A stretch of 64,000 nucleotides of DNA from an uncultured Thermoplasmatales archaeon (GTDB taxonomy: Archaea; Thermoplasmatota; E2; DHVEG-1), in the NCBI GenBank assembly GCA_964612945.1, contig CAZTFR010000001.1:24418-88417 (forward strand). Direction: 5' to 3'. Below, piece after piece: positions 2,997 through 38,207 of the stretch. Below the pieces are notes generated by a model. It searched no databases. It was not told the DNA's origin and was given only the letters and a program-made list of their open reading frames with translations. The position numbers and the translations under genes were made by a program. Numbering within the stretch: the stretch's first letter is position 1; each line of letters starts with the position of its first letter.

Positions 2997-3560
2997 CTAC
3001 TCAGATCCATAATCTTCAATAATCCATTGAGCGGCATCGAGGAGATTTTTTGCAATATAGGTGGGTGTACTATTACTTGTTTCTAGCTCAGCTGCTCCCC
3101 GTTCGTTTTCCAATAAGATTGTTTTACATCCCACCGCTTCACCTGCTTGTACATCCATAATGCGATCACCAACCATATATGCTTTCTCTGCAGTAATATG
3201 ATGATCTGAGATGGCTTTTTTAAGAAGACCTGGTTGTGGTTTTCGACAACCACATCCCTCATCAGGATGGTGGGGGCAGAAATAGACTTGTTTCACCTTA
3301 CCTCCGGCTTCTTCCAGCTCGTGGATCATTTTTCGATGCATGTCCTCAAGCTCTTCAGGGGTGACCATTTTTCGGGCAATAACTGATTGATTCGTGATGA
3401 AAATAGTGGAAAAACCGTTTTTGGTAAGCAAACGGATTGCCTCTTTTGCATGTGGAAGAAAATGAAATTCTTCCCATGATTTAATATGATCTGGGCTGTC
3501 ACGGCTGACGGTTCCGTCACGGTCTAAAAAAACTACTTTTTCCATGGTTCTACTCTGCAT
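2997..3560 (-). CDS. gmhB: D,D-heptose 1,7-bisphosphate phosphatase (HAD-IIIA, GmhB-like)
   Basis: VFLDRDGTV HAD motif I. CPHHPDEGCGCRKPQPG zinc/His-phosphatase-like insert. GDRIMDVQAG motif. Confidence 0.7.
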   Translation of the reverse strand: MQSRTMEKVVFLDRDGTVSRDSPDHIKSWEEFHFLPHAKEAIRLLTKNGFSTIFITNQSVIARKMVTPEELEDMHRKMIHELEEAGGKVKQVYFCPHHPDEGCGCRKPQPGLLKKAISDHHITAEKAYMVGDRIMDVQAGEAVGCKTILLENERGAAELETSNSTPTYIAKNLLDAAQWIIEDYGSE

Positions 3561-4221
3561 CAGTCATTAAAAAGGCTACCATATGACCAAGAAGTGTATG
3601 CATGTCTTCACTGTGTTGCATGTTATCTATTTCAACAGTGATGCATTCATCGGCAACCTGTTTTAGTGCTCCCCCGTCAAATCCAGCAAAACCAATGGTG
3701 TAACACCCCAGCTCTTTTGCCTGTTGCATACCTTCGATAATGTTTTTTGAGTTTCCGCTTCCACTGATACCAAGAACGACATCGTTTTTGTCTGCAAGAA
3801 TGTAGAGTTGCTCTTTAAAGATCACACTGTAGTCGTCATCGTTACTATATGCAGTGATTGAGGCGATACTATCAGTGAGGGCGATGGCTTTCAGTTTTCT
3901 GAATTTTGAAAAATCGCAGATCAGATGGGAGGCAAGCGAACCGCTTCCACCATTTCCCATAAGAAATACTTTTTTTCCTTCTCTACGTGTTTTTTCAAGA
4001 ATCTGCAAGACACGTTGTATTTGATCCGTTTTCTTTTTCAGCTGTTCAATACATTGAATGGATTCATCAAGATACTGCTGAATCTGATTCGTCCTATCTG
4101 TATAGGTTGGACTAGTATCTGTTGATTTTTGTGTTGGTTGTTTTTTCTCCTCACTCTTTTGTATTATACCTTGTCTCATCCTTACCACCTTCTCATTTTT
4201 TTGTATGAGACTCGGTTCCAA
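3550..4221 (-). CDS. gmhA: phosphoheptose isomerase (SIS domain, GmhA-like)
   Basis: KVFLMGNGGSGSLASHL and LGISGSGNSKNII SIS motifs. The low-complexity N-terminal about 40 aa suggests the true start may be an internal Met. Overlaps the gmhB start (operonic). Confidence 0.7.
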   Translation of the reverse strand: MEPSLIQKNEKVVRMRQGIIQKSEEKKQPTQKSTDTSPTYTDRTNQIQQYLDESIQCIEQLKKKTDQIQRVLQILEKTRREGKKVFLMGNGGSGSLASHLICDFSKFRKLKAIALTDSIASITAYSNDDDYSVIFKEQLYILADKNDVVLGISGSGNSKNIIEGMQQAKELGCYTIGFAGFDGGALKQVADECITVEIDNMQHSEDMHTLLGHMVAFLMTDAE

Positions 4222-4346
4222 CAGGGGGAACCGATGAGGAAACTACTAGCAAGCCTACTTTTTTTTCAGCTCGTAATTTATTTTAAAGTTTATAGTTTGA
4301 TTGATTTATATATTTTTCCAAATTTCAATCTTTTTTTGATATGAAC

Positions 4347-5315
4347 TTATTCTTCCACATAAATGATACGACTGCCCTGAGGTTCAAGTCTAAAGGAGGT
4401 TTCTGTTAGATCATTGAGTGCCTTTCGAACCGGTTCTTGTTTTTGTTTTTCGATGTAGAGCAGTAAGAATCCGCCGCCACCAGCGCCTAATATTTTTCCA
4501 CCAAGCGCTCCTGCTTTTCGAGCTTTTTTATAGATAGTATCTATAGTTTTATTGGTAACCTTTCCTGTTTTCTTTTTGTATTCCCATGCAGTATGTAAAA
4601 GTTCTCCAAAACTGGAAAGATCATTGTTCCTGAGTGCTTCAGCCATCTCATGAGAGAGTTCTTTGAGTTTGTCGACTTGCCTGTATAGCACTTTCATGTT
4701 TTGTTTGCTTTCAGACAGAATCGTGCTTGCTTTACGGTTGACTCCTGTGTAGACGAGCAGGAGATTTGCGTTAAGTTGTTCGATGGTTTGTGTGTGGGCG
4801 ATGATGGGGTTGACAAAGACGGTTTCATCTGAGTTGAAACGGATAGTGTTGAGCCCCCCGTAGGCGCAGGCGTATTGATCTTGTTTACCGATGGGTTCGT
4901 GAAGGCGGCGTATTTCGATCTCGCAGGCTTCCTGGGCAAGTTTTTCTGCCCCCGCGTGTTCTCCTTTGTATGCGTGAAGCGCATTGAGAAGTCCGACGGT
5001 AAACGCGCTAGAGGATCCAAGACCGGTTCCAGAGGGAATATCGGCAATGGTGGTAATTTCTAGGCCACCATCAAGGTCGAGGAGCTGCAGTGCCTCGCGG
5101 ACGATAGGATGTTGAATTTCACCAACTTTTTCGACGATTTCAGTTTTTGAGTAGCTCACACGGATGTGGTTGTCGAATTTTTTGTTGACGGTGACATAAA
5201 TATATTTGTCAATGGAAGTGCTAATCACTGATCCGTAGGAGTGTTGATAGTAGTCTTGCAGATCAGAGACGCCTCCTGCAAAACTAATGCGAAAGGGTGT
5301 TTTTGAGATAATCAT
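4347..5315 (-). CDS. hddA: GHMP kinase, D-glycero-D-manno-heptose 7-phosphate kinase-like (HddA)
   Basis: MIISKTPFRISFAGGVSDL N-terminus. GHMP ATP-binding loop PSGTGLGSSSA. Confidence 0.7.
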   Translation of the reverse strand: MIISKTPFRISFAGGVSDLQDYYQHSYGSVISTSIDKYIYVTVNKKFDNHIRVSYSKTEIVEKVGEIQHPIVREALQLLDLDGGLEITTIADIPSGTGLGSSSAFTVGLLNALHAYKGEHAGAEKLAQEACEIEIRRLHEPIGKQDQYACAYGGLNTIRFNSDETVFVNPIIAHTQTIEQLNANLLLVYTGVNRKASTILSESKQNMKVLYRQVDKLKELSHEMAEALRNNDLSSFGELLHTAWEYKKKTGKVTNKTIDTIYKKARKAGALGGKILGAGGGGFLLLYIEKQKQEPVRKALNDLTETSFRLEPQGSRIIYVEE

Positions 5316-6250
5316 TGCTCATCCAACAAATAGCGGACGGTTCGTCGCACCGCATCTTCTAGTTTTACAGTGGTACGCCATCCCTGTTTTTTTGCTTTTT
5401 TATAGGAAAGAACCGTGATGGGAACGTCGCCTACCCAGCCGCGATCCCCCCCGGTAAATGTGTACTTCACATCAGATAGACCCATCTCATCGACAATAAT
5501 AGGGGCCAGATCTTTGACTTTAATTGATTCATCATTGGCAAGATTGTATGCTTCGACGACCACATTAAAATCCTGTTTTGGTATATTGATCAGCCCGGCA
5601 ACACAGTCGCTGACATCAAAATAGGATTTCGTCTGATTTCCATCTCCCAAAATTTCTAGCTCTCGTGGATTTTTTTGCAGTTTAGCGACAAAATCGGGAA
5701 TCACCCCATGAGTGCTCCGTCTACCAACAACATTTGCAAACCGAAACATCCAGGACTGAATACCATAGGTGTAACAATAGGAGCTGATAAATTTCTCAGC
5801 AGCAATCTTACTTGCCCCATAAAAGGAAATCGGGCGAATATCTGGGAGATCCTCTGGTGTGGGTATCACTTCAGTTTCTCCATAGAGTGCGGAACTGGAG
5901 GCAAACACCAATTTTTTTATATCATGAAGACGCATGAATTCAAGGACGGTATGCGTGCCAATCACGTTTTCTTCAAGATCCACACGGGTGTTATGGACAC
6001 CACTGCGAATGTCTGCGTTTGCGGCGAGATGAAATACCCAGTCAAATGATTCATCAGTAAAACTGGATAACTCTTTAATGTCTTTTTTTCGAAACTCAAA
6101 GTTGTCTTTTCCCTCATGGTGTTTAAGAAACTCGCTTTTACCCGTTCTAAGATTATCTATTGCGACAAGTTTCTCAGGATTTTCAGCCATCAATGTATCA
6201 ACCAGGTTACTTCCGATGAACCCGGCGCCACCGGTTATAAGATATTTCAT
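5312..6250 (-). CDS. NAD-dependent epimerase/dehydratase (extended SDR, GalE/WbpP-like)
   Basis: ITGGAGFIGSNLV Rossmann motif and YGASK catalytic YxxxK. Confidence 0.75.
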   Translation of the reverse strand: MKYLITGGAGFIGSNLVDTLMAENPEKLVAIDNLRTGKSEFLKHHEGKDNFEFRKKDIKELSSFTDESFDWVFHLAANADIRSGVHNTRVDLEENVIGTHTVLEFMRLHDIKKLVFASSSALYGETEVIPTPEDLPDIRPISFYGASKIAAEKFISSYCYTYGIQSWMFRFANVVGRRSTHGVIPDFVAKLQKNPRELEILGDGNQTKSYFDVSDCVAGLINIPKQDFNVVVEAYNLANDESIKVKDLAPIIVDEMGLSDVKYTFTGGDRGWVGDVPITVLSYKKAKKQGWRTTVKLEDAVRRTVRYLLDEQ

Positions 6251-6417
6251 CTATCATTCACCTTTTTTTCTAAACATACTTTTCTATGAGGCATACTATC
6301 TGCGTCTCAGAAGAAAACCCTCAGAAAAGACAGAGGTAGTGCCTCGAATGACCTGTCTTGCAGTGATAAAAAAGGATAACTTAAATCTTTCTACAGAAGA
6401 CACCATCTTTTAATGCT

Positions 6418-7245
6418 TTATCGTTCACTTGCTTGTGATTTTCGAAGTCGTTCTTTTGTCATGGTTTTTTTCCCAATAAGTTTACAGAAAAAATACCCAA
6501 AACTTGCAAAAAACAGACGGATCAACTTCCAGGCAGATTCTCCTCGTTTAACCTTTACCATGTCAATAGGATCATACGCGGACCAGAGTGTGCCATGTTT
6601 TAAAGTCAGCTCTTTTCGTCCGAATCCATACCAAAAGGATTGCTTGAAAAACCCCATAAGTGATTCACGAGCCCGATGATACACAATAGCTCGTTTGTTA
6701 TACACTAACCTGAACCCTTGATCGACAGCACGAAAGTTCAGATCAACCTCTTCGGCTTCCTTAAACCAGGGATCAAATCCTTCAAGTTGATCAAACACCT
6801 CCTTTTTATAGGCAAGATTTACACTGGGATAGGTTACATCCACCCCCTTATGAATGATGCCTACTCTACCGAGTGAGCCGAATCCTTTGAAGCCCAGACG
6901 GACCTCCCGACCTGCTACCACATCTGCGTTCCTCAAAGATTTTTGTATTTCTTCAATCCAAAATGCATTGGCAATAGCATCAGCATCAATAAAGGCGACC
7001 ACATCACCCGTGGCCTTTTTTGCACCAAAATTTCTCCCTGCCGCACGAGAACCAGGATCAGAGTAAAAGGAAATAAAATCATACAGCTTCTCATATTTTT
7101 TTACCAGTTCTGGTGTCTCATCGGTGCTCTCTGCATCCGTCACAATCACCTCATAGGGCTGCACGGTCTGCACAATCAGACTATCCAGCAAATCACAAAT
7201 ATAAAATGCTGAATTCCGTGTAATCACAATCACACTTGTTTTCAT
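6418..7245 (-). CDS. glycosyltransferase family 2
   Basis: SVIVITRNSA...VIVTDAESTDET...FIDAD (DxD) GT-A signature. Confidence 0.7.
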   Translation of the reverse strand: MKTSVIVITRNSAFYICDLLDSLIVQTVQPYEVIVTDAESTDETPELVKKYEKLYDFISFYSDPGSRAAGRNFGAKKATGDVVAFIDADAIANAFWIEEIQKSLRNADVVAGREVRLGFKGFGSLGRVGIIHKGVDVTYPSVNLAYKKEVFDQLEGFDPWFKEAEEVDLNFRAVDQGFRLVYNKRAIVYHRARESLMGFFKQSFWYGFGRKELTLKHGTLWSAYDPIDMVKVKRGESAWKLIRLFFASFGYFFCKLIGKKTMTKERLRKSQASER

Positions 7246-7410
7246 CTGTACCAGGCGACATACAATTCATCAATTATAACAATTTGCAGAAACAACCGCG
7301 TTTTCTTTTCCTCTTTTCATTTGAACAACATTTATAAAAAATTCCTTGTTACATTCCCCACCAGACGTCTTGTAAAACAAAATAAAACGGATGACTGAGG
7401 GATAAAAGGC

Positions 7411-8295
7411 ATGCGTGTTCTCATTATCGGTATCGACGCTCTCGAACATTTCCTCGTCGAAGAATGGAACCTCAAACATCTCAAACAAAAAGAATATGGC
7501 ACCGTGCGCGTACCACTAGCCAGAGGACTTTCGGAGCCATCGACAGAAATTGTGTGGCCCTGCTTTATCACCGGACAACCACCACGACAAATGGGATATG
7601 ATTCACCAATTCTCTACCGCCAACCCTACAAATGGCTTTTCGAACACTTCTACGCACCCTTTACCTCCTCTCACTCGGATATACACCCCGAAGACATCAT
7701 CGAAGAACGATCAACCACACGACGAATCCTTGATCAGTTTAGCAGCAGCATGATGAAAGCCGGTCTCTTTTATCATCCCACCAAAAAAGACATCACCGCA
7801 CCCACTCTATTTGACAACAACGCCATCAAATCAGCACACTTCCACATCCCTGTCTACGACAACGATGCCTTTCCCTTCGACCGCAAACTCATCTTTGACG
7901 TCCTCAACAAAACCTATCCTGCCTCACCGTTTCTCAAAACCTGCAAACAGGCCATACAGACCCGCTGTCAAGAACTAAACACCTATCTTACCAACAATAC
8001 CGATTGGCAACTGGTGATGATGTATTTTTTCACCCTCGACGCCGTCCAACATGCCTTCTACAACAAAAAACTCACCATCATGGACTTCTACCTCCTCTTC
8101 AATAACTACATCGGAACCCTCAAAAAAACACTACCCAAAAACACCCTACTCCTCATTATCTCTGATCATGGACAAAAAAAAGGCATTCACACCCTCCATG
8201 GATTCTACAGCAGCAACAAAAAACTAAAACTACACAACCCTGATATCACCACCTTCAAACCCCTCATCGAAAACCTTCTCGAGAAAAAACCATGA
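7411..8295 (+). CDS. alkaline-phosphatase-superfamily protein (type I phosphodiesterase/nucleotide pyrophosphatase-like)
   Basis: VLIIGIDAL N-terminus and C-terminal LLLIISDHGQKKG metal-site motif. Coding strand strikingly G-poor and C-rich. Confidence 0.4.
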   Translation: MRVLIIGIDALEHFLVEEWNLKHLKQKEYGTVRVPLARGLSEPSTEIVWPCFITGQPPRQMGYDSPILYRQPYKWLFEHFYAPFTSSHSDIHPEDIIEERSTTRRILDQFSSSMMKAGLFYHPTKKDITAPTLFDNNAIKSAHFHIPVYDNDAFPFDRKLIFDVLNKTYPASPFLKTCKQAIQTRCQELNTYLTNNTDWQLVMMYFFTLDAVQHAFYNKKLTIMDFYLLFNNYIGTLKKTLPKNTLLLIISDHGQKKGIHTLHGFYSSNKKLKLHNPDITTFKPLIENLLEKKP

Positions 8296-9455
8296 AACAC
8301 ATCGGCATCCTTGAATACACATATCATTCCATCTACTTTGCCACACTTGCAAAAATCACCAACACCCCTACAACCAAAGTCACCTTATGTACCACTGAAG
8401 AAATCTATCACCGTATCCTCCCGCATCTCCCTAATATCAACGACTACCACTGCATACTTAAAAACAAAACAGAAAGCATCAACAGCTTTCTCAAACGAGT
8501 GGAAACATACTGTAACAAACATATCGATCTTCTTTTTGTCAACACTATCCAGGAATCACTCAAAGATCTCCCCCATCATCTTGCCTTCAATCCTAACTGT
8601 AAAAAAATTCTTACTATCCACGATGTCAACACCTGGCTGAAACCCAAACCACAGTTTGATCTCATACGTCCCCTACGTACCTTAGACACCCTCATGAGTA
8701 CGCTACTCATTCAACACAACATCCTTCCAAAATACACAGCAATTAACGTCGTCTACCCTCCCCTAAAAGACTATGTAGAATGTAATACCACCTACGACAA
8801 ACCAATTTTCACCCTACCATTCATGCTGTATAATCCCGATAAAAAAACAAAACAAACAAAGCAAACCAAACAAATCCATTTTGTTGTCCCTGGAGAAATC
8901 ATCAACACGCGACGAGATCATCAAACCATTCTCACCGTCTTCACATCCCTCTTCAAAAAATATAAACAACGCATAAACCTCACCCTGCTTGGAAGACCAC
9001 GAGGAAACTATGGAGCAACAATACTCAATCACGCTGAAACCCTTAAAAAACAAGGATACAACATCACCTATTACAAAGAATTTGTCCCAGAAACCCTCTA
9101 CGACGAAACCCTCCAAAACGCAGATGTCATCATAGCACCTGTCAAACTACAAACCACAAGTTTGGGCACCATCAAAGAAATCTTCGGACAGACCAAAGCA
9201 TCAGGAGCACCGTACGAAGCAATTCAATACGCAAAACCACTTATTATCCCCAACGGATTCAACATGGTAAAAGAACTTACAAACTCAATCCTCCCCTATG
9301 CATCAGAAGAAGATTTACAACAACACCTCACCAAGCTTATCACAAATCCAAAAAAACTTGCGACCATTAAAAAAAACGCTCAAAAAAATGCAGCCATATT
9401 TTCCCTAAAAACTCAACAGAAATACTTCCAAGAACATATTTTAAATAAGATTTAA
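8292..9455 (+). CDS. GT-B fold glycosyltransferase-like (GT4-like C-terminal domain)
   Basis: C-terminal half has the E...ADVIIAPV...[10 protein letters not shown] pattern of GT1/GT4. Contains a [11 protein letters not shown] low-complexity repeat. G-poor coding strand. Confidence 0.4.
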
Positions 9456-9502
9456 CAATAACCAATATACTTCCCAAGAAAAAAGGTACTGGAGGAGGTA
9501 TC

Positions 9503-10543
9503 ATAAAAAAAGCATTAATCACCGGCATCACTGGTCAAGACGGCTCCTATCTTGCAGAATATCTGCTGCAAAAAGGATATGAAGTCCACGGCATCAAACG
9601 AAGGAGCAGCATCATAAAAACAGATCGCATCGACCATATCTATCAAGACCTTCACGAAGACGACCTTCGATTTATCCTTCACTATGGCGACATGACAGAT
9701 TCCAGTAATCTCAACCGAATCGTCGAACAAATAGACCCTGATGAAATCTACAATCTCGCCGCACAAAGCCATGTGAAAGTATCCTTTGATGTCCCCGAAT
9801 ACTCCGCAGAAGTAGATGCCATCGGCACCTTACGTCTTCTCGACGCAATAAAAGAGGGCGGCGTGAAATGCAGATTTTACCAAGCCTCCAGCAGCGAAAT
9901 GTACGGAAAAACCACCGAGTTTCCACAAAACGAACACACTCGATTCAACCCACAAAGCCCGTATGCCGCAGCAAAAGTGTTTGCCTATTGGGTAACCAAA
10001 AACTACCGTGAAGCATACCATATGTATACTGCAAACGGCATTCTTTTCAATCATGAATCACCACGACGAGGAGAAACCTTTGTAACCCGAAAAATAACCA
10101 GGGCCATCGCAAACATTTACCATAAAAAACAAAAACAACTATTTCTCGGCAATATTCATTCCAAACGAGATTGGGGGTATGCCCCGGAATATGTCGAAGC
10201 AATGTGGATGATGCTGCAACATCACACACCTGACGATTTTGTAATTGCGACAAACGAAGAACACAGCGTCAAAGAATTCTGTGAACATGCCTTCGATGAA
10301 ATCGGGATCACCATCGAATGGAAGGGAACTGGCGTAAAAGAAAAAGGAATCGACAAACGAACCAAAAAAACTCTTATCAAAATCGACCCATATTACTTCA
10401 GACCTACTGACGTTGAACGACTTCAAGGTGATTACTCCAAAGCAAAAAAACAACTTGGCTGGAAACCAAAAACCACCTTTAAACAACTCGTAAAACTGAT
10501 GGTACAAGCAGATTTGGAGCGTGTAGAACATGCAAACATTTGA
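9503..10543 (+). CDS. gmd: GDP-mannose 4,6-dehydratase; frame lacks ATG/GTG/TTG, probable ATA start
   Basis: N-terminus (I)[36 protein letters not shown] aligns with the Gmd N-terminus. Open frame 9449..10543 has no ATG/GTG/TTG before the Rossmann motif. GGAGGAGGT sits 7 nt upstream of ATA at 9503. Confidence 0.8.
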
Positions 10544-13248: not shown

Positions 13249-13256
13249 CGTTAGAT

Positions 13257-14225: not shown

Positions 14226-14241
14226 AAAAAGGGGTTTTTCT

Positions 14242-17936: not shown

Positions 17937-17949
17937 GAGGGACAAAACT

Positions 17950-27418: not shown

Positions 27419-27438
27419 ACTTGTGAACAAAGGAAGGA

Positions 27439-28611: not shown

Positions 28612-28631
28612 CGGATACTTGTGTGTAATCA

Positions 28632-29894: not shown

Positions 29895-29906
29895 GACAGG
29901 ATTCTC

Positions 29907-30998
29907 ATGATGCAGCAATCAAAAAAATATGTCTTTTTTGTCATCACTTTCGGCAGTATTTATGATCGGGTGCTTCCCTTAATTGAGGAAAAAAAAGAGA
30001 AGGGGGAAATTATTGTTGTTGCAACGACTGATCAGATTGAAGCGTTCTTTCGAAAATATACTGATTTTACAGTCATTCGAACCAAAGTTCATCCGGATCT
30101 TATCACGAGAAATACGAAATATCTCCTTCTTATTAATAGTATTAAAAGTAAAATTGAATACCGCCGTCTTTTCAAACATATTCAGGGTGCTGATGTCTAT
30201 TTTTGTAATGTTGGGTATGCCATGGTTATTTATAGTTACATAAAGAAATTGGGAAAAAACAATAGAGTTTTTTACTATGGAGATACACCTATTTCGCAAG
30301 ATCCCGCAATTAATAAATCTCTTCTTCAGTACACTGTAGAAAAAAGTGTCCGCACATTTCTTATGAGACAAGCTACAAAATGGCTTCTGGGGATACCAAC
30401 AATTGTGCGAACGAACATGAATATTCCCTTTTGGGTGTTGGACGAATCTTTTTTTGATACGGTTTTTGTAATTGATAAGTATGTTGGTGATAAATCATCA
30501 TTAAATAAATACGTTGGTAAAATTAAGGAACTTCAGGGGAAAAAGATTTTAGTGGCAACGGAGGATGCAGTCGCCTGTGGCAACATTGATGAGCCGAATT
30601 TTACAGAGTATATGAATCGTTTAAAGGATATACTTGATATGATTGCTCCGGGGCAGTATGCCCTTAAGCCGCATCCTCGTTTGGATAAATTATTTGGCGA
30701 TATGAAAAAAGTGGATGCGGTAATTCCACCTTATATTCCCTTTGAATTTGTCTTGAATCATAAATGGGAGAGTATTATTGGAATTAATTCATTAGCGCTT
30801 ATTCATTCTTCTTTGATGACTGATGCTCCTGTGTTTTCGATTATTGATGCAGTTAATTTCAAAGATAAAAAGGTTCAACAAATGTTTCGATCCTGGCTTT
30901 CGAAGGAATCAAAAGATGCCATTCGTTTTCCGTCTAGTCTTGATGAGTTAAAAGAGTCGTTACTTGAAATTTCGAAGAAAAAGGAGCAAGTACTATGA
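29907..30998 (+). CDS. TagF/KpsC-like putative transferase (paralog 3)
   Basis: ALKPHPRLDKLF (K-PHP-R) motif and the C-terminal GT-B-like half. Confidence 0.4.
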   Translation: MMQQSKKYVFFVITFGSIYDRVLPLIEEKKEKGEIIVVATTDQIEAFFRKYTDFTVIRTKVHPDLITRNTKYLLLINSIKSKIEYRRLFKHIQGADVYFCNVGYAMVIYSYIKKLGKNNRVFYYGDTPISQDPAINKSLLQYTVEKSVRTFLMRQATKWLLGIPTIVRTNMNIPFWVLDESFFDTVFVIDKYVGDKSSLNKYVGKIKELQGKKILVATEDAVACGNIDEPNFTEYMNRLKDILDMIAPGQYALKPHPRLDKLFGDMKKVDAVIPPYIPFEFVLNHKWESIIGINSLALIHSSLMTDAPVFSIIDAVNFKDKKVQQMFRSWLSKESKDAIRFPSSLDELKESLLEISKKKEQVL

Positions 30999-31035
30999 AG
31001 AAACGGTATTGTTTATCAGTTGAGGATGTACGCAT

Positions 31036-32487
31036 ATGAGCAAAATGGGAAAAGTGCTATTTATTGTGCATGATGTCTATCAGGATGATAACGAGTTTCC
31101 CTTGGGTGTTGGGTATCTTGCAGCAGTGCTTCGTCAACAGGGTGCTGATGTGACGGTCTGTTGCCAGGACATCTACCATTATCGCAATGAAGAATTAGCT
31201 GAAAAATATCTAAAAAATCAGACGTGGGATGTAATTGGAATTGGGTTTCTTGCCGCTCGTTTTAAGGAAACGATTATTGATCTTTGTAAGACGGTTAATC
31301 AGCATAAAAAGAATGCAAAATTAGTATTGGGCGGTCATGGCCCATCTCCGATCCCTGAGTTTGTGCTACAGACGACACAGGCAGATGTTGTAATACTTGG
31401 TGAGGCTGAGGAGACCATTGGAGATCTTCTTCAAGCCGTGGTGAACGGTGAATCCTATCAAGATATCAAGGGTATTGCGTATCGGGATGGTGATCAGATC
31501 GTTGTGAATGATCGCAGAAAGCCTGTTCGTCATCTCGATGAGCTTCCTTTTCCTGCATGGGATCTTTTTCCCATGGATATTTACACATCAAACATGCAAT
31601 ATATGGGGCAGGATCCTAATGAAAAAGCTATTCAATTAATTACGAGTCGTGGATGTGTGAATAAATGCACCTTTTGCTATCGGTTAGAACCCGGTATTCG
31701 CTTTCGTAGTTTGGATAATGTTGTACAGGAAATGAAAGCCCTGTATGATACCTATGGTGTCACCTATTTTGTCATTCAAGATGAACTCTTTGTTGCATCA
31801 GTGAAACGCTTTGAGAAATTCATTGATACTCTCGAAAACTATGGGCTGCTTCATAAGATTAAATACAATATTAGCGTGGGAATTCGTGCAGATGTTGCAA
31901 CAGAGGAGATGGCTGAGCTTTTAAAAGAAACCGGGTGTGTCTATGTCAATATTGGGTTTGAATCGGTCTCCCAACAATGTCTTGATGACTATCGAAAAAA
32001 TACAACCGTCGAACAAAACTATGCAACTGCTGAGTTGATGAGAAAATATGAGATCTCCATGGGGATCAATTTCATCTGGGGAATCTGGAGTGACAGCGAG
32101 CAAACACTGAAAGATAATGTCGCTTTTATTAAAAAATATAACCGCTACGATGAATTACGAACGATTCGACCGGTCACTCCATATCCTGGTAGTGAACTCT
32201 ATTATCAAGCAATTGATCATGGTCTCCTAAAGGGTCCTTCAGATTTTTTTAACAAGTTTCGTAATTCTGACTTGCTCACGGTAAATTTCACGAAGTATTC
32301 TGAAAAAGAGTTTTACACCCTATTGTTTCAGGCTAACAAGGAGCTTATCTTAGATCATTATCGGCACACCGGCGATAGAAAGGCCGCAGAAAAAATGATA
32401 GCTGATTTCCGCAATCTCTATTTCAAAGGCTATGTTCAATTCCGGGGCGCCCGACATTTCGAGAAAAACCCTATAAGCAGTCACTAG
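31036..32487 (+). CDS. B12-binding-domain radical SAM enzyme (class B radical SAM methyltransferase-like)
   Basis: N-terminal cobalamin-binding-like domain (VLFIVHDVY...GVGYLAAVLRQQG). CxxxCxxC-type cluster region SRGCVNKCTFCYR. Confidence 0.7.
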   Translation: MSKMGKVLFIVHDVYQDDNEFPLGVGYLAAVLRQQGADVTVCCQDIYHYRNEELAEKYLKNQTWDVIGIGFLAARFKETIIDLCKTVNQHKKNAKLVLGGHGPSPIPEFVLQTTQADVVILGEAEETIGDLLQAVVNGESYQDIKGIAYRDGDQIVVNDRRKPVRHLDELPFPAWDLFPMDIYTSNMQYMGQDPNEKAIQLITSRGCVNKCTFCYRLEPGIRFRSLDNVVQEMKALYDTYGVTYFVIQDELFVASVKRFEKFIDTLENYGLLHKIKYNISVGIRADVATEEMAELLKETGCVYVNIGFESVSQQCLDDYRKNTTVEQNYATAELMRKYEISMGINFIWGIWSDSEQTLKDNVAFIKKYNRYDELRTIRPVTPYPGSELYYQAIDHGLLKGPSDFFNKFRNSDLLTVNFTKYSEKEFYTLLFQANKELILDHYRHTGDRKAAEKMIADFRNLYFKGYVQFRGARHFEKNPISSH

Positions 32488-32657: not shown

Positions 32658-33524
32658 ATGTATGATTCAACCTACACAGATGTACCATTTATTATTGCAG
32701 AAATTGGCATTAATCATAATGGATCACTTGAGATTGCAAAGCAACTGATAGACATGGCAGCAGACTGCGGATGTAATGCGGTGAAGTTCCAAAAACGAGC
32801 CATAGATGTCGTCTACACAGAAGATTATTTGGCATCACCGCGAAAGAGTCCGTGGGGGGCTACACAACGAGAACAAAAAAAAGGTCTTGAGTTTGAACAA
32901 CAAGAATACAATAAAATCGAACGTTATTGTCGACAGAAAAATATCGAATGGTTTGCCTCGGCATGGGATGAACAAAGTCAACAGTTTCTGCGGCAGTATA
33001 AACTCAACTACAATAAAATTGCATCAACCATGCTTACCAACATTCCCTTTCTGGAATTGGTTGCACAAGAAAAGAAACACACCTTCATCTCAACTGGTAT
33101 GAGTACCTATAAAGAAATTGACAAGGCTGTTCAGATTTTCAACGATTACGATTGTCCCTTTACTCTGATGCATTGTGTTTCCACCTATCCCAGTGAAGAT
33201 GAGGAATGCAATATCTTAATGGTACAAACATTACAAGAGCGATACAATTGCGATGTTGGATACAGTGGTCATGAGCGGGGAGTTACTCCCTCTATTCTTG
33301 CGGTAGCATTTGGTGCCCGCGTTATCGAACGACATATCACTCTTGATCGAACAATGTATGGAAGTGATCAAGCAGCCTCCCTTGAAAAACGAGGGCTTGA
33401 AATACTGGTGCGAGACTCCCGATCCGTGCAGGAAATACTCGGTGATGGAGAAAAATATTTTACGGATAAAGAAAAACCGATTGCCAAAAAACTCCGGTAT
33501 TTTGAGGTCAACCATTATGAATGA
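32658..33524 (+). CDS. NeuB-family synthase (SpsE-like, no SAF domain)
   Basis: FIIAEIGINHNGSLEIAKQLIDMAA and FQKR motifs. 288 aa without the C-terminal SAF domain. Confidence 0.7.
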   Translation: MYDSTYTDVPFIIAEIGINHNGSLEIAKQLIDMAADCGCNAVKFQKRAIDVVYTEDYLASPRKSPWGATQREQKKGLEFEQQEYNKIERYCRQKNIEWFASAWDEQSQQFLRQYKLNYNKIASTMLTNIPFLELVAQEKKHTFISTGMSTYKEIDKAVQIFNDYDCPFTLMHCVSTYPSEDEECNILMVQTLQERYNCDVGYSGHERGVTPSILAVAFGARVIERHITLDRTMYGSDQAASLEKRGLEILVRDSRSVQEILGDGEKYFTDKEKPIAKKLRYFEVNHYE

Positions 33525-34764
33525 ACCTATGTTGCAGCATCCTTCGCAGAATCCGTATGGGAAATGGATCGGAAATGAGCTTCGGTATGTCACTGAGGTT
33601 CTTGACTCTGAAAATAAGGAAAATAAAAAAAATCCATGGGTAAATCGTTTTGAAACAGCCTTTGCCAAACGCTTTGGTATGAACTACGGTATAGCCCATA
33701 ATTCAGGGACATCAACGCTTCATTCTTGTCTTGCGGCAGCAGGTGTTCACGCCGGTGATGAAGTGATTTGCCCTGCGTATACTGTGATTATGAATGCGTT
33801 TGCTATCCTTCATCAGAACGCAGTCCCCGTGTTTGCCGACTCTGATCCTGAGACATTTAACATTGATCCCAGTGATGTAAAACGGAAAATTACCGATAAA
33901 ACCAAAGCCATAATTGCGGTCCATATGCATGGTCTTCCTGCAGATATGGGTCCTCTCATGAAACTTGCACGACAGCATAATCTTGTCGTCATTGAGGATA
34001 GCGCGCAATGTGTGCTTGGATGGTACAAAAATCGTCTGGCAGGAACCATTGGTGATATGGCAAGTTTTAGTTTTGAAACGAAAAAACATCTCTCCACCTT
34101 TGAAGGTGGGATGGTGCTGACAAATAATAAGACCTATGCAGAAACAATCAGAAAAGTCGGTGGATTGGGATATAAAACACTCTCTGCTGATCAGGCACTA
34201 CGAACCGTGTTACCAACTGATTTTCAAGACCCCCATTATAAACGTCATGATATCCTTGGCTGGAATTATCGAATGACAGAGCTTACCGCAGCGGTAGGGC
34301 TTGCTCAACTTGAACGAGTTGATGAAATTGTGGAAAGACGGCAGCAGGTTGCCGCACTTTTTGATCAGGCAGTGGAGGATTGTGAGTGGATGATCCCGCA
34401 AAAAATACCTTCTCATATGACACATACGTATTGGACGTATGCAGTGCGCTATCTGGGTGATCAGTACACGAATGTGTCCTGGAAAGAGTTTTACCATCGG
34501 TATCTTAAAAATGGAGGGGATGGCTTTTATGGGGCTCTGTCGCTTCAGTATCAGGAACCGGTGATGAAAGAGAAACAATGGCTGGGAACCTACCTTCCTG
34601 ATTGTGATGTCTATACTGGTCAATTTGAGTATCATGATGGCCTATGTCCTGTCGCTGAAGAGATCCAACCCACAGTTATGCAGTTTAAGACAAACTATCG
34701 TAACCTAAATATTGCACGGAAAAAAACTGACATCCTGCGACAGACGATTAAAGAAATGAGTTAA
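33517..34764 (+). CDS. DegT-family sugar aminotransferase (SpsC-like)
   Basis: Start taken at ATG 33517 in an ATGAATGA overlap with the upstream stop. The ORF-track start 33310 would overlap the preceding gene by 200 nt. PLP region FSFETKKHLSTFEGG. Confidence 0.75.
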   Translation: MNEPMLQHPSQNPYGKWIGNELRYVTEVLDSENKENKKNPWVNRFETAFAKRFGMNYGIAHNSGTSTLHSCLAAAGVHAGDEVICPAYTVIMNAFAILHQNAVPVFADSDPETFNIDPSDVKRKITDKTKAIIAVHMHGLPADMGPLMKLARQHNLVVIEDSAQCVLGWYKNRLAGTIGDMASFSFETKKHLSTFEGGMVLTNNKTYAETIRKVGGLGYKTLSADQALRTVLPTDFQDPHYKRHDILGWNYRMTELTAAVGLAQLERVDEIVERRQQVAALFDQAVEDCEWMIPQKIPSHMTHTYWTYAVRYLGDQYTNVSWKEFYHRYLKNGGDGFYGALSLQYQEPVMKEKQWLGTYLPDCDVYTGQFEYHDGLCPVAEEIQPTVMQFKTNYRNLNIARKKTDILRQTIKEMS

Positions 34765-34781
34765 CAAAGGAGAGTTTAGCT

Positions 34782-35507
34782 TTGGATGAATATGGATTTA
34801 TTACGGTACGAACCACGTCTTCTCGTTTAAAAGAAAAATGTCTGCTTCCCTTTGGAGAACAAACGGTGATTGAACATGTTATTGATCGTGCGCTGCATTT
34901 CAATTTTATCCCAGTGATCTGCACGACGACGAACGCTACTGATAACATACTGGAAACCATCGCAAACAAACATAATGTTTGTTGTTTTCGTGGAAGTGAA
35001 AAAGACAAACTGAAGCGTTGGCTTGATTGCTGCAACCATTTTTCTATTGACTCATTTGTTAGTATTGATGCCGATGATCCCTTCTTTGATGAGGAGTCTG
35101 ATCATCACTGTATGAAACTGCTTCATGAGCAGCAATTGGATGCGGTTTATCCTCCAGAAAATATCTATGTTGGAAGCGTTGGATATGCACTTACACGAGA
35201 TATCATCAACCGAGCATGCAAACTAAAATCAAGTGATGATACAGAGATGATGTGGTATTATTTAGAAAAAGTCCCCGATCTTAAAAAAACTGTGCTGCCC
35301 GTTTTTGACGTTGAAGAAACAAAAATCAGATTGACACTTGACTATGAGGAAGATTATTGGATGCTAGTCAGCGTTCTTCGAATGCTCGATTCCTATCCAA
35401 CACGTCGCGACATTGAACAATTATTTATCAGAAATCCTGACCTGCATAAAATCAACTGGTTCCGAAACCAGCAATGGAAACAAGGCCAACTTGAGAAAAA
35501 AATTTAA
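34782..35507 (+). CDS. CTP-transferase-3 family cytidylyltransferase (SpsF-like)
   Basis: FITVRTTSSRLKEKCLLPFGEQTVIEHVI N-terminus typical of the acylneuraminate cytidylyltransferase superfamily. Confidence 0.6.
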   Translation: MDEYGFITVRTTSSRLKEKCLLPFGEQTVIEHVIDRALHFNFIPVICTTTNATDNILETIANKHNVCCFRGSEKDKLKRWLDCCNHFSIDSFVSIDADDPFFDEESDHHCMKLLHEQQLDAVYPPENIYVGSVGYALTRDIINRACKLKSSDDTEMMWYYLEKVPDLKKTVLPVFDVEETKIRLTLDYEEDYWMLVSVLRMLDSYPTRRDIEQLFIRNPDLHKINWFRNQQWKQGQLEKKI

Positions 35508-35526
35508 CCCTGAGGTAGGCAGAGAC

Positions 35527-36363
35527 ATGGAAAAAAAAACGATATCTCGGCTTTTTGGTCTTGACGGCAAGGTTGCTGTGATCACTGGTGGTGCAGGCAT
35601 GCTTGGGGAGATGCATGCGGAAATTATTGCAGAAGCCGGCGGTATACCGGTGTTGGTAGACATTCAAATAGAGCAAGCAGAACAAAAAGCAAAGCGGATA
35701 CAAAAAAAGTTTGCTGTTCCCACGTTAGCGGTGAAAACTGATATCACGAAGCAAGAGGAGGTAAGACGTCTTCTGAAAACAGTGCTGCAGCGATATGGTC
35801 GCGTTGATATTCTTATCAATAATGCGGCACGTAATCCAAGAGTTGGTCAGTCAGAAGGCGTTGAGTTATCACGATTGGAACATTTTTCCCTGCAACAGTG
35901 GCATGCGGATCTGGCTGTGGGACTGACCGGTGCTTTTCTCTGTAGTAAGGTGATTGGTGAGGAGATGGCAAAGCGCCATGCAGGTGTTATAATCAATATT
36001 TCCTCAGATTTGGGAGTGATCGCCCCAGATCAGCGTTTGTATAAAAAACCTAATTGTTCTGAGGAGAAACAACCGGTAAAACCGGTGACGTATTCGGTGG
36101 TGAAATCTGGATTACATGGGTTAACCAGGTATCTGTCCACCTATTGGGCTGAAAAAAATATTCGAGTCAATTCACTCTCTCCAGGAGGAGTATATGAAAA
36201 TCAACCAGATAGTTTTGTACAAAAAGTATCTCATTTGATTCCTCTGGGGAGAATGGCAAAAAAAGATGAATATAAAGGTGCTATTTTGTTTCTTTGCTCT
36301 GATGCGTCTTCCTATATGACTGGCGCAAATCTTATTGTCGATGGAGGAAGAACTGTCTGGTAG
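35527..36363 (+). CDS. short-chain dehydrogenase/reductase
   Basis: KVAVITGGAGMLGEMHA and YSVVKSG (YxxxK). Start taken at Met 35527 to avoid overlapping the upstream gene. Confidence 0.7.
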   Translation: MEKKTISRLFGLDGKVAVITGGAGMLGEMHAEIIAEAGGIPVLVDIQIEQAEQKAKRIQKKFAVPTLAVKTDITKQEEVRRLLKTVLQRYGRVDILINNAARNPRVGQSEGVELSRLEHFSLQQWHADLAVGLTGAFLCSKVIGEEMAKRHAGVIINISSDLGVIAPDQRLYKKPNCSEEKQPVKPVTYSVVKSGLHGLTRYLSTYWAEKNIRVNSLSPGGVYENQPDSFVQKVSHLIPLGRMAKKDEYKGAILFLCSDASSYMTGANLIVDGGRTVW

Positions 36364-36380
36364 TTTTGTGAGGTGTAACG

Positions 36381-36677
36381 ATGAGTGTGTATTGTTTTGA
36401 TATTGATGGAACAATTTGTTCAAAAGAATCTCCGGAAAATTATGGGAAAGCAAAGCCGTTTAAGCAAATCATAAACCGAATTAATAAATTGTATGTGGAA
36501 GGCCATACTATTTATTTTTTTACCTCTCGGCATATGCTGAAAGAACCGGTTACAAAGGAATGGTTTGCTCGGCATGACGTGCGCTATCATCAGATCTTTT
36601 TTGGAAAACCTTTGGCTCAGGTATATGTTGATGATTTAGCGCTTAATCCTGATGAGTTTTTGAAAAATGAAAAATAA
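36381..36677 (+). CDS. small HAD-superfamily phosphatase-like protein
   Basis: CFDIDGTIC (DxDGT motif I) in a 98-aa protein. Confidence 0.4.
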   Translation: MSVYCFDIDGTICSKESPENYGKAKPFKQIINRINKLYVEGHTIYFFTSRHMLKEPVTKEWFARHDVRYHQIFFGKPLAQVYVDDLALNPDEFLKNEK

Positions 36678-36683
36678 TTTTTT

Positions 36684-38207
36684 TTATTTTTGTTTTATTT
36701 CCCCTGAAATATAGTGATACATTTTTTTGATATTGAAGGTATCAAGTAAGAAGAGTATATCTTTTTTGGTGAATTCTCTACAAATGAAGAGTATTCCAAG
36801 ATATATGCCAAGGCCAAGGAGGCTGATAGCAAGGAGGCTATACCAGCGGTTGATGACTAGTATTCCTGATTCGAAACTGATCCAGTAGAGAATGATGCTC
36901 ATTATGCTGCTTGCGAATAGGTGAAGGATGAGGCGGTAGTTGAATCGTACTTGTAATATCTTATATACGGTGTATCTGCAGTAGAGATATCCAAGGGTGT
37001 ACGAAATCACGGTTGCTATCGCGGCGCCGGTCGGGCCGAGGCCAAAGAGGGTAAGTCCGAGGCTTTGTATGTCTTTTGGGATGAGAAGAATATTTAATAA
37101 TACATTTGTTGTGACCATGAGAAGTATTCTGTTTCTTTCAAGTTTTGGTTTATCCATTCCTAAGAGTTGCGAGTGATAGGGTATGGAGAGTGCGTAGAGG
37201 AGTGCATATATGGGGAGGATGCGGAAGATGGGAATGGCGGGGATGAATTCTTTGGAAAGGAGGATGGTGATTGCTGGTGATGCAAGGACGATTATCCCTG
37301 CAACCATGGGGAAGGTGAGCATGCTGACGTATCGTTCGGATTGATGAAGGATTTGTTTGATTGCTTTTTTGTCGTTTTTTTTGTGCAGTGCAGAAATGGT
37401 TGGGAAGAGTAATCCTCCGATGCTGCTTCCCGCCATGACGATGAATCCGGTGATGCGAAATGTTGCAAAGTAATAACCTACATCGTTTGCGTTGTAGAAC
37501 ATCTGAATAAGGACTTTGTCGATATGTGTCATGATGAGGGCGGAGCTGCTGACAATGAGGAGGGGCCATGCGAAGGTGAGATATTTTTTGAAGCTTTCTT
37601 TTGTTGGTTTTTTGAGAGGGTATCCTTTGAAAAATACAAGACTGCTGAGAAAGAGGAAGAAATGACCAAAGACGTATGCGAAAGCAAGTTCGATGGCGCC
37701 AAATCCTGAGATCGCCACGTAGATGATTGCACCGGTCCGGGCGATGGTTCCAATGAGTCGGGGGAGGTATGTTTTTGCAATTTTTGTTTGTGCGGTAAAG
37801 GTTATTTGAAAGATGGTCGCTGTTTTTTCTAATATAAAATAAAGCAGGATAATGTAGATTGCGGCTTCATGTATTGGTGTTTCAAATCCTCTTCCGATGA
37901 TGAATAGCCAGAAGAAGACGGTACCAATAGTCAGAGCGGTCATTATTGAAAGAAGTATTAGCTTTACCGAAAGAAAGGTTCCAATGCAGGTTCCAAGATC
38001 TTCTCCTCCAGAAACTCGTTTTATGTGTGCTTCGTTGAACCCGAGGCTTGAAACCATGGTGAATAAACCGACATATCCGATGGCAAACCCGATTATCCCA
38101 TAGTCGTATGGTCCGAGATATCGCGCGATGAAAAATAATGAGACATAGGCTAATATGGCATCGAGAATATCGGTTGTCATGATAAGAAGTGTTTTTCTTG
38201 CGATCAT
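36684..38207 (-). CDS. wzx: Wzx-like polysaccharide flippase (MOP superfamily)
   Basis: 507 aa with about 12-14 predicted TM helices and a polysaccharide-biosynthesis-protein topology. Convergent with the cluster end. Confidence 0.65.
   Translation of the reverse strand: MIARKTLLIMTTDILDAILAYVSLFFIARYLGPYDYGIIGFAIGYVGLFTMVSSLGFNEAHIKRVSGGEDLGTCIGTFLSVKLILLSIMTALTIGTVFFWLFIIGRGFETPIHEAAIYIILLYFILEKTATIFQITFTAQTKIAKTYLPRLIGTIARTGAIIYVAISGFGAIELAFAYVFGHFFLFLSSLVFFKGYPLKKPTKESFKKYLTFAWPLLIVSSSALIMTHIDKVLIQMFYNANDVGYYFATFRITGFIVMAGSSIGGLLFPTISALHKKNDKKAIKQILHQSERYVSMLTFPMVAGIIVLASPAITILLSKEFIPAIPIFRILPIYALLYALSIPYHSQLLGMDKPKLERNRILLMVTTNVLLNILLIPKDIQSLGLTLFGLGPTGAAIATVISYTLGYLYCRYTVYKILQVRFNYRLILHLFASSIMSIILYWISFESGILVINRWYSLLAISLLGLGIYLGILFICREFTKKDILFLLDTFNIKKMYHYISGEIKQK

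Follow-up and report, generated by a model that had tools for sequence, protein, structure and literature searches.

Nonulosonic acids cap surface glycans and govern their recognition by phages, hosts and immune systems. In Archaea, to our knowledge, only a few cases are known. The N-glycan of Halorubrum sp. PV6 and the spike glycan of HRPV-1 carry legionaminic acid, and Methanobrevibacter smithii has a pseudaminic-type cluster. Among Bacteria, Bacillus subtilis uses SpsC, SpsE and SpsF, which have been reported to make legionaminic acid for the spore crust, and the legionaminic acid (Leg) pathways are represented by those of Campylobacter jejuni (LegB, LegC, LegH, LegG, LegI and LegF, with the PtmF-LegF-PtmA trio) and Acinetobacter baumannii (lgaA-F with elaABC). 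In bacterial Leg clusters a pair of CBS domains is found on the nucleotidyltransferase PtmE. The PtmF-LegF-PtmA trio occurs in Leg clusters of Campylobacter, Vibrio and Plesiomonas, with PtmF listed as an oxidoreductase (PMC4481668), and ElaA and ElaC of A. baumannii have been proposed to epimerise the cytidine monophosphate (CMP)-linked sugar CMP-Leg5,7Ac2 at C8 (PMC13656337). Here we describe a run of glycan-biosynthesis genes at positions 2997-38207 of a 64-kb stretch of contig CAZTFR010000001.1 (the whole stretch that was analysed, hereafter the window). We read it, with a probability of roughly 70%, as a mosaic surface-glycan island of a probably archaeal genome, which would provide precursors and transferases for a lipid-linked oligosaccharide flipped by a Wzx-type flippase and decorated with a legionaminic-type acid and probably two further CMP-activated acidic sugars. 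As in the described archaeal systems, the surface glycan is predicted to end in a nonulosonic acid; the island differs from them in having three CMP-sugar modules side by side, one of which is an AroB-like cassette.

The list of open reading frames (ORFs) and NCBIfam/Pfam profile scans of the window gave 34 glycan-biosynthesis genes without a break, a succession that cannot be a chance pattern. The boundaries put forward in an earlier reading of this DNA (the original prediction) were recovered, and all the genes it named were located at the coordinates it gave. Also recovered were its legionaminic-type enzyme set at 14242-20943, its SpsC/E/F-like set (a short NeuB, a DegT aminotransferase and a CTP_transf_3 cytidylyltransferase within 32658-36677), its count of three cytidylyltransferases (all CTP_transf_3, at 14242, 27439 and 34782) and its terminal MOP/Wzx flippase, which is convergent with the biosynthetic genes. 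Its account of the whole cluster was incomplete, leaving uninterpreted about one third of it (21016-32487), where we find the AroB-like cassette with a class III aminotransferase, a sialyltransferase-like glycosyltransferase (GT) and a B12-binding radical SAM enzyme. The gaps between genes, which measure 82 bp near 11.5 kb, 72 bp near 21.0 kb and 170 bp near 32.5 kb, point to three units: module 1 (11584-20943), module 2 (21016-32487) and module 3 (32658-36677). Between them these encode three CMP-ulosonate synthetases and three GT-B enzymes belonging to kinds whose donors are CMP-linked ulosonic acids. The left arm has a minus-strand operon devoted to a sugar-1-phosphate (genes for an isomerase, a GHMP kinase and a GmhB phosphatase), which also encodes a nucleoside diphosphate (NDP)-sugar epimerase/dehydratase and a GT2 enzyme, and genes for synthesis of guanosine diphosphate (GDP)-L-fucose (Gmd and Fcl), accompanied by two others of transferase or phosphatase-like type. 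The Leg-type module is of a known kind; what is new is that a probable archaeon has three CMP-sugar modules, each with a candidate transferase, and that one of these modules is a widespread, uncharacterised cassette.

The mosaic structure is visible in a related locus, L088, in which a GT of the type encoded at 29907, module 3, the Wzx flippase, a Zn-ribbon protein, TrmB and an HAE3 transporter follow in the same order at 52-74% identity. The upstream modules of L088 differ, and encode HpcH, a B12-radical SAM enzyme, a methyltransferase, a CMP-transferase, a 2-hydroxyacid dehydrogenase, an epimerase and a HAD protein. By this comparison the island is a mosaic in which modules 1 and 2 appear to have been replaced in L088, with module 3, Wzx and the flank conserved. 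The sequencing run of L088 is adjacent to run SRR7048220, whose Logan contig (4.6 kb) holds the exact NeuB of the window. At codon position 3, the flanks (4347-11501 together with 36684-52279) have strong strand asymmetry; the central 11584-36677 is unskewed and of lower GC, a pattern compatible with the central cassettes having been acquired or exchanged recently. Between 36.7 and 52.3 kb the top strand is rich in G and T, whatever the orientation of the genes; at 7.4-11.5 kb it is rich in C and A. GC skew falls to -0.55 at 7.8-9.0 kb, and the minimum of the cumulative skew lies near 20 kb. With three CMP-sugar modules, each accompanied by a candidate transferase, in one island exchanged by module between related genomes, this module-by-module swapping offers a natural system for studying the diversification of archaeal surface glycans.

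Module 1 is the legionaminic-type block. Its genes are as follows:

11584-13248 (+): KpsC/KpsS-like (Capsule_synth) GT-B enzyme, candidate CMP-ulosonic-acid transferase (PF05159, 37.8 bits, above the cut-off of 20)
13257-14225 (+): Gfo/Idh/MocA oxidoreductase in the ElaA/PtmF position (PF01408 and PF22725)
14242-14943 (+): CMP-nonulosonate synthetase, LegF/NeuA/ElaB-like (PseF model, 143.9 bits, below the cut-off of 205.7)
14936-15733 (+): classical short-chain dehydrogenase/reductase (SDR), PtmA/ElaC-like (PRK09186, 240 bits, cut-off 255; FlagModPtmA, 163 bits)
15718-16794 (+): nonulosonate synthase with SAF domain, NeuB/LegI type (TIGR03569, 418.6 bits, above 399.65)
16791-17936 (+): hydrolysing NDP-sugar 2-epimerase, NeuC/LegG type (TIGR03568, 399.5 bits, above 235.9)
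17950-18357 (+): short acetyltransferase of the left-handed beta-helix type, 135 aa (Hexapep; 64 bits on the NeuD/PglB/VioB family, whose cut-off is 160.8, matching by its C-terminal part only)
18354-19511 (+): DegT-family sugar aminotransferase, PseC/LegC-like (PseC 312 and LegC 243 bits, both below cut-off)
19483-20943 (+): CBS domain fused to an NDP-sugar 4,6-dehydratase/epimerase (PF00571; PF01370, 163 bits)

These genes point to a 5,7-diacetamido nonulosonic acid of the legionaminic type as the product. Candidates for all six enzyme classes of the C. jejuni and A. baumannii pathways are present, and the dehydratase, aminotransferase, acetyltransferase, hydrolysing 2-epimerase, synthase and CMP-synthetase would together follow the legionaminic route. 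NeuB and NeuC both exceed their curated cut-offs. The synthase scores 288.8 bits on the PseI model, below its threshold of 340.25, and its nearest relatives, 55-60% identical, come from metagenome-assembled genomes (MAGs) of Thermoplasmatota and Lokiarchaeia, where the JGI label is mostly N,N'-diacetyllegionaminate synthase. The 2-epimerase is closest to solved LegG, the GDP/UDP-diNAcBac 2-epimerase (253.8 bits, vs 195 for human GNE and 40 for N. meningitidis SiaA). The product of 14242-14943 has the CTP_transf_3 fold and its best PDB matches are CMP-Neu5Ac synthetases (113 bits), which identifies it as a CMP-nonulosonate synthetase at family level only. A metagenomic locus, L090, repeats the order CMP-transferase, NeuB, NeuC, short acetyltransferase, DegT, dehydratase.

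Within 13257-15733, the Gfo/Idh/MocA, CMP-transferase and SDR genes are adjacent inside the Leg cluster in the order ElaA-ElaB-ElaC. The original prediction had the right enzyme set but placed the start of the block at 14242, missing the oxidoreductase gene at 13257 that completes this ElaABC/PtmF-LegF-PtmA-type trio. The oxidoreductase and SDR may epimerise the product at the level of the CMP-sugar, as proposed for ElaA and ElaC; PDB searches with the two proteins, bearing on their orthology to ElaA and ElaC, gave generic Gfo and SDR matches only. The module also departs from its bacterial counterparts. Its dehydratase has a CBS domain at the N-terminus and resembles LegB only distantly (95.6 bits, cut-off 475; PseB model, 40 bits), its acetyltransferase lacks the usual N-terminal domain (a short form also present in loci L085 and L090), its aminotransferase is favoured by the PseC model over the LegC model, the island has no PtmE or PgmL for the GDP-GlcNAc branch, and the host is probably archaeal. 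In the CBS domain at the N-terminus of the dehydratase (19483-19950), the sole query match was a CBS-bearing nucleotidyltransferase of locus L009.

Module 2 contains the AroB-like cassette, and its genes are as follows:

21016-22506 (+): GT-B transferase heading the cassette (weak PF04464 match; 60% identity to its positional counterpart in L086)
22515-23552 (+): Gfo/Idh/MocA oxidoreductase, cassette core (IolG-like, 118 bits)
23525-24580 (+): class I S-adenosylmethionine (SAM) methyltransferase (PF13489, 53.7 bits; same position in L086 and L093)
24552-25520 (+): D-2-hydroxyacid dehydrogenase, cassette core (PGDH 233 and glyoxylate reductase 199 bits, below cut-offs)
25579-26352 (+): classical SDR ketoreductase, cassette core, overlapping the AroB-like gene (FabG-like, 219 bits)
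26327-27418 (+): AroB-related sugar-phosphate phospho-lyase (TIGR04425, 453.5 bits, above the cut-off of 400)
27439-28611 (+): CMP-ulosonate synthetase fused to a cupin domain (PF02348, 74.9 bits; PF07883, 54.5 bits; CMAS-like in the PDB)
28632-29894 (+): class III pyridoxal-phosphate-dependent aminotransferase (299 bits on the LAT family, below cut-off; also at this position in L015 and the P0003 contig)
29907-30998 (+): GT38-like (bacterial sialyltransferase-like) GT-B transferase (polysialyltransferase-like fold, HP motif)
31036-32487 (+): radical SAM enzyme of the B12-binding class B (144 bits on BchE and 95-123 bits on several families of C-/P-methyltransferases; also at this position in the P0003 contig)

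The enzyme that defines the cassette belongs to the fold family of 3-dehydroquinate synthase (DHQS) and of the sugar-phosphate cyclases DOIS, EEVS and DDGS. An alignment of 19 TIGR04425 family members shows no variation in the DHQS motifs that bind NAD, metal, phosphate and carboxylate; in what we take to be A. nidulans DHQS numbering, the residues are R130, D146, K152, N162, E194, K250, R264, N268, H271, H275, H287 and K356. TIGR04425 is nevertheless a family separate from DHQS: the protein scores 279.7 bits on the true-AroB model TIGR01357 (cut-off 305), it has no aromatic amino-acid context, and every neighbourhood examined is a glycan locus. It differs from the sugar-phosphate cyclases in being flanked by an SDR (77 of 84 loci) and mostly by Gfo (44), D-2-hydroxyacid dehydrogenase (40), SIS isomerase (39) and CMP-transferase (30) genes. 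Its best PDB relatives are true DHQS (165-116 bits), followed by DOIS (116), EEVS (4p53, 106.8) and DDGS (5tpr, 78.3); being nearer to DHQS in this comparison, it was ruled out as a sedoheptulose-7-phosphate cyclase of the EEVS/DDGS type.

When genomes representing species were scanned with the AroB-like protein, 80 loci were returned at 33-57% identity. Carriers include Bacteroidota, Nitrospirota, Pseudomonadota, Desulfobacterota, Verrucomicrobiota, Actinomycetota, Bacillota and SAR11/SAR86/SAR116 among Bacteria, to which most of the cassette homologues belong, and Nitrososphaeria, Methanomassiliicoccales and Halobacteriales among Archaea. Clustering of the ORFs of these loci separated two types of neighbourhood. 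Type A, defined by at least two of Gfo, SIS and D-2-hydroxyacid dehydrogenase (n=39), is the nearest to the window: it combines a Gfo/Idh/MocA oxidoreductase, a GmhA-like SIS isomerase, an SDR, the AroB-like enzyme, a D-2-hydroxyacid dehydrogenase and a CTP_transf_3 cytidylyltransferase. Two CMP-transferase clusters occur in 24 and 16 of these loci and Maf/MptE-like transferases in 16; HpcH/HpaI aldolases, methyltransferases, aminotransferases, a DUF386 or cupin protein and a PF04199 cyclase are the other frequent extras. In type B, the AroB-like gene accompanies a nucleotidyltransferase, a 4,6-dehydratase, DegT, a thiamine-pyrophosphate-dependent enzyme, an SDR and in some cases an FGGY kinase, a gene set that resembles branched-chain deoxysugar clusters of the yersiniose type. 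Loci of type B (L051, L065, L066, L069, L075 and L077) are found in Lachnospiraceae, Butyrivibrio, Halobacteriales and others.

The gene order of the window cassette recurs in Nitrososphaeria loci, in L086 and L093, and in the P0003 contig. The last reproduces the order of 25579-32487 exactly, from the SDR through the AroB-like enzyme, the CMP-transferase with its fused cupin, the class III aminotransferase and the 29907-type transferase to the B12-radical SAM enzyme. Long CMP-transferase ORFs, known by size only (403 and 384 aa), also follow the AroB-like gene in L008 and L015. Searches of the literature for TIGR04425, for 'sugar phosphate phospholyase' and for dehydroquinate synthase in polysaccharide clusters found no reports. 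Plasmid searches with the AroB-like protein returned housekeeping aroB only, at about 31% identity. On a megaplasmid of Halorussus aquaticus (NZ_CP100401.1, 164456-183082; L092), a NeuB-family protein, DegT, two SDRs, a GNAT protein, a Gfo/Idh/MocA oxidoreductase, a 'glycosyltransferase family protein' of SpsF size and a class III aminotransferase are encoded together, which echoes the grouping of Gfo, CMP-transferase and class III aminotransferase in the window.

What the cassette makes can be proposed from its enzyme classes. Although the core ends in an enzyme of the CMP-sialate synthetase type, it encodes neither an aldolase nor a synthase, and neither a kinase nor a phosphatase, so that the alpha-keto acid probably arises by oxidation. 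A GmhA-like isomerase would convert a ketose phosphate, for example sedoheptulose-7-phosphate, to an aldose phosphate, which the Gfo enzyme would oxidise at C1 to an aldonate and the 2-hydroxyacid dehydrogenase to a 2-keto acid. The DHQS-like enzyme would then catalyse NAD- and metal-dependent beta-elimination of the terminal phosphate, with or without ring closure, the overlapping SDR would reduce the resulting ketone, and the cupin-fused CMP-transferase would activate the product. Aminotransferase, methyltransferase and B12-radical SAM enzyme would act afterwards as decorating enzymes. Our tentative proposal, for which we rate the chances at somewhat less than even, is that the TIGR04425 cassette makes a CMP-activated sugar acid of a class not yet described, perhaps a heptulosonic acid deoxygenated at its terminus or a carbocyclic (quinate-like) analogue, from a common sugar phosphate, and that the product is aminated, methylated and installed on surface glycans by KpsC/S-like and sialyltransferase-like enzymes. 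The B12-radical SAM enzyme could extend the carbon backbone through C-methylation, which recalls the unassigned C10 CMP-alpha-keto acids detected by mass spectrometry in Magnetospirillum (bioRxiv 10.64898/2026.04.20.719630).

Whether DHQS-like closure would yield a carbocycle, or the SDR would intercept the intermediate to give a terminal-deoxy ulosonic acid, is a choice in which CMP activation, the cupin/DUF386 partner and the types of transferase favour the ulosonic acid. Cupin and DUF386 domains of this kind may act on anomers. The alternative is a carbocyclic product, as made by other sugar-phosphate cyclases: an aminocyclitol or an acid resembling quinate or a cyclitol, destined to be a small-molecule natural product or a non-glycosidic, possibly phosphodiester-linked decoration, and no CMP-ulosonic acid. 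The complete DHQS machinery has been kept, and by its established mechanism DHQS chemistry normally closes a ring; the inositol-dehydrogenase-like Gfo and the aminotransferase are typical of aminocyclitol routes, and the weak match of 21016-22506 is TagF-like. We nonetheless regard this alternative as unlikely, given the recurrent CMP-transferases and Maf/MptE-like transferases of type A neighbourhoods, the CMP-transferase that is fused to, or followed by, a cupin/DUF386 domain (the fusion also follows the AroB-like gene in the P0003 contig), the setting in glycan loci, and the chemical reasoning that a tertiary carbocyclic CMP-ester would be a poor glycosyl donor. Should the CMP-sugar acid proposed above be real, it would be an overlooked and widespread surface sugar, since carriers of the cassette are spread over many phyla of Bacteria and several lineages of Archaea. 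The cassette is present in at least about 80 genomes at species level, and its enzymes match no known sugar pathway. Cultured carriers are available in Joostella sp. CR20 (type A) and in Butyrivibrio sp. MB2005 and Lachnospiraceae AB2028 (type B), in which the product is directly testable by CMP-sugar mass spectrometry.

Module 3 and the flippase complete the island:

32658-33524 (+): short NeuB-type synthase without SAF domain (TIGR03569, 264 bits, positions 1-273 of 329)
33517-34764 (+, start inferred): DegT-family aminotransferase with divergent C-terminus (PF01041 271 and LegC family 206 bits; 74% identical to L088)
34782-35507 (+): SpsF-like CTP_transf_3 cytidylyltransferase (PF02348, 52.5 bits; 65% identical to L088)
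35527-36363 (+, start inferred): classical SDR, PtmA-like (PRK09186 184 and PtmA 130 bits; 71% identical to L088)
36381-36677 (+): small (98 aa) HAD-like capsule-type phosphatase (TIGR01689, 45 bits, below cut-off; 64% identical to L088)
36684-38207 (-): MOP/Wzx-family flippase, convergent (MOP flippase, O-glycosylation Wzx and other models, 29-39 bits, full length)

The short NeuB, DegT, CMP-transferase, SDR and small phosphatase would produce a third CMP-sugar acid. Module 3 shares with the B. subtilis sps genes the adjacency of a DegT aminotransferase, a NeuB-type synthase and a CTP_transf_3 cytidylyltransferase. It differs from them in that its synthase lacks a SAF domain and is nearer to its best PDB match, the 290-aa NeuB 6ncs (162.6 bits), than to SpsE (107.3 bits), and in having an SDR and a mini-HAD phosphatase with no dehydratase, epimerase or acetyltransferase. 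A reasonable guess is that the route starts from a phosphorylated aldose, followed by dephosphorylation and oxidation/transamination. The short synthase was also considered as a frameshifted fragment; this was ruled out by its match to the solved SAF-less NeuB of 290 aa and by its L088 homologue, which is 296 aa long and 73% identical. The flippase homologue of L088 (64% identical) carries PF01943/PF13440.

The three GT-B proteins encoded at 11584, 21016 and 29907 resemble CMP-ulosonic-acid transferases. That of 21016-22506 is distantly related to Capsule_synth-like GTs of L088 and L090, which have HpcH/CMP-transferase modules as neighbours and are themselves weakly linked to 11584-13248; with these relationships, three candidate CMP-donor transferases stand beside three CMP-synthetases. 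For 29907-30998, the closest known system is that of the bacterial sialyltransferases of GT38 (the polysialyltransferases NeuS/SiaD), with GT52 and GT80. The protein has the GT-B fold and the HP motif; it did not match PF07388 even at E = 5, and 20 of 89 relatives did (best E 4e-8).

The left arm of the island comprises two transcription units on opposite strands:

2997-3560 (-): GmhB-type HAD-IIIA sugar-bisphosphate phosphatase (NF006506, 186.6 bits, above the cut-off of 178)
3550-4221 (-): SIS-domain sugar-phosphate isomerase, GmhA-like (TIGR00441, 100.6 bits, below the cut-off of 209)
4347-5315 (-): GHMP sugar kinase, HddA-like (NF049969, 169.5 bits, full-length alignment, far below the cut-off of 600)
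5312-6250 (-): NDP-sugar epimerase/dehydratase, extended SDR (dTDP-glucose dehydratase 140 and LegB 112 bits; none above cut-off)
6418-7245 (-): GT2 glycosyltransferase (several GT2 families including AglG-like, 66-102 bits)
7411-8295 (+): alkaline-phosphatase-superfamily protein (PF01663, 38.1 bits, above the cut-off of 23)
8292-9455 (+): GT4-type glycosyltransferase (PF00534, 27.2 bits, cut-off 26.4)
9500-10543 (+): GDP-mannose 4,6-dehydratase, Gmd (TIGR01472, 570 bits, above the cut-off of 415, scored from 9500)
10530-11501 (+): GDP-L-fucose synthase-like reductase/epimerase, Fcl (NF047922, 285 bits, below the cut-off of 500)

The minus-strand operon (7245-2997) has, by its gene content, the logic of a heptose-1-phosphate route with the activating enzyme missing. 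As in the GDP-D-glycero-alpha-D-manno-heptose pathway (GmhA, HddA, GmhB, HddC), the isomerase, kinase and phosphatase genes are adjacent and co-oriented; the island differs in its lack of HddC, as had been predicted, and in GmhA-like and HddA-like proteins well below the equivalog cut-offs. With queries derived from related neighbourhoods, tblastn found no sugar-1-phosphate nucleotidyltransferase of the PF00483 type in the 64-kb window, the sole match being the CBS part of 19483-20943. The original prediction proposed that GDP-heptose is made here and converted to GDP-6-deoxy-heptose as in Campylobacter, alongside Leg-like and SpsCEF-like routes, with one of the cytidylyltransferases standing in for HddC. 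In its favour are the score of GmhB, the neighbouring GmhA-like and HddA-like genes in the same orientation, the additional SDR epimerase/dehydratase of the operon, and the isomerase, whose closest solved relative is C. jejuni GmhA (90.7 bits). The isomerase is present as predicted; its heptose role is uncertain, since it is at least as near to the SIS proteins of AroB cassettes (100-120 bits, 31-38% identity) as to solved GmhA, and it has the Asp and Glu-Asp-x-His features of those proteins (in an alignment with what we take to be the E. coli GmhA sequence). The epimerase/dehydratase of 5312-6250 is 51% identical to an epimerase that adjoins the short-NeuB module of L090.

The remainder of that proposal fares poorly, and we consider it improbable as a whole. 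The three cytidylyltransferases, CTP_transf_3 proteins throughout, belong to the CMP-ulosonate class, and those at 14242 and 27439 belong to the CMP-sialate synthetase family in PDB comparison, so that a substitute for HddC among them is disfavoured. Gmd is a clear GDP-mannose dehydratase equivalog. The Fcl-like protein matches E. coli Fcl best, over its full length (205 bits), and the heptose-modifying homologues of Campylobacter over its N-terminal half only (140-170 bits). Gmd and Fcl, read from these two matches as plain GDP-L-fucose synthesis, look like ordinary genes for that sugar rather than heptose-modifying enzymes, which speaks against the 6-deoxy-heptose branch; they also form a separate transcription unit on the opposite strand, and the proposal leaves 21016-32487 without explanation. 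The Gmd ORF at first seemed short by 62 N-terminal residues. Reading the DNA shows that the N-terminus is whole and in frame, with ATC (9500) and ATA (9503) directly after GGAGGAGG and no ATG, GTG or TTG at 9449-9505, so the gene either uses a non-canonical initiation codon or appears to have undergone a point change in its start codon. A 5'-truncated pseudogene was ruled out by the in-frame N-terminus from 9500 and the full-length score.

Several points weigh against the reading of the island as a probably archaeal source of three CMP-activated acidic sugars. Its products are predictions from the genes, and within the 64-kb window we found no initiating phosphoglycosyltransferase, oligosaccharyltransferase or polymerase. 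In module 1, the dehydratase, aminotransferase and CMP-synthetase all score below every equivalog cut-off, so the product may be Leg, 8-epi-Leg or another isomer. For module 2, the order of steps is deduced solely from enzyme classes, the cassette in the window has no SIS gene in situ (3550-4221 is the sole SIS gene in the window), and tblastn did not find in the window the HpcH aldolase that is present in many relatives. Finally, the Tgt at 57518 (56784-58705 region) is by its scores of the queuine tRNA-guanine(34) transglycosylase type (468 bits, above 306; archaeosine TgtA, 154 bits, below 350), which is unexpected for an archaeon. The Tgt gene adjoins one for a YhhQ/Vut_1 precursor transporter.

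The host is nonetheless probably archaeal, in agreement with what was first proposed: the nearest named homologues of NeuB and the AroB-like protein come from MAGs of Thermoplasmatota, Lokiarchaeia/Promethearchaeota and Nitrososphaeria. A NucS protein scores 244 bits on NF003270 (cut-off 216), which we take to be the archaeal NucS model, and 93 bits on the other NucS model; a TFE/TrmB-like regulator lies beside the HAE3 transporter, and the syntenic locus L088 carries DUF357, presumably an archaeal family. An Rfam scan of the window gave one tRNA only. That the contig is instead bacterial and the cluster an ordinary capsule or O-antigen locus is very improbable, as the bacterial-type Tgt beside a YhhQ-like transporter, a Shine-Dalgarno-like GGAGG before Gmd and the mostly bacterial homologues of the cassette are set against the archaeal nearest relatives of NeuB and the AroB-like protein, the regulator beside HAE3, and a window without Wza/Wzc, Wzy, KpsMT or lipid A genes.

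The island is bordered on the left by a PrsW-type protease gene (2261-2935) and two small ORFs with hydrophobic N-terminal segments and no family match (484-984 and 1076-1819). These had been described as sequon-rich secreted proteins, a description that suits the first, with 7 N-X-S/T sequons in 166 aa vs 1.5 expected from composition; the second is only mildly enriched (5 vs 3.0). Both are possible substrates of the glycan, or may merely be secreted proteins. On the right, the island is followed by genes for the Zn-ribbon protein, a SAM hydrolase, the TrmB/TFE-like regulator and the HAE3 transporter. The hydrolase gene (38820-39608), just outside the cluster, encodes an (R)-S-adenosyl-L-methionine hydrolase-like protein (NF058624, 201.6 bits, below the cut-off of 350) and adjoins the Zn-ribbon gene that is conserved in L088. 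Its third codon positions are strongly biased, with G3 0.36, C3 0.02, A3 0.08 and T3 0.54.

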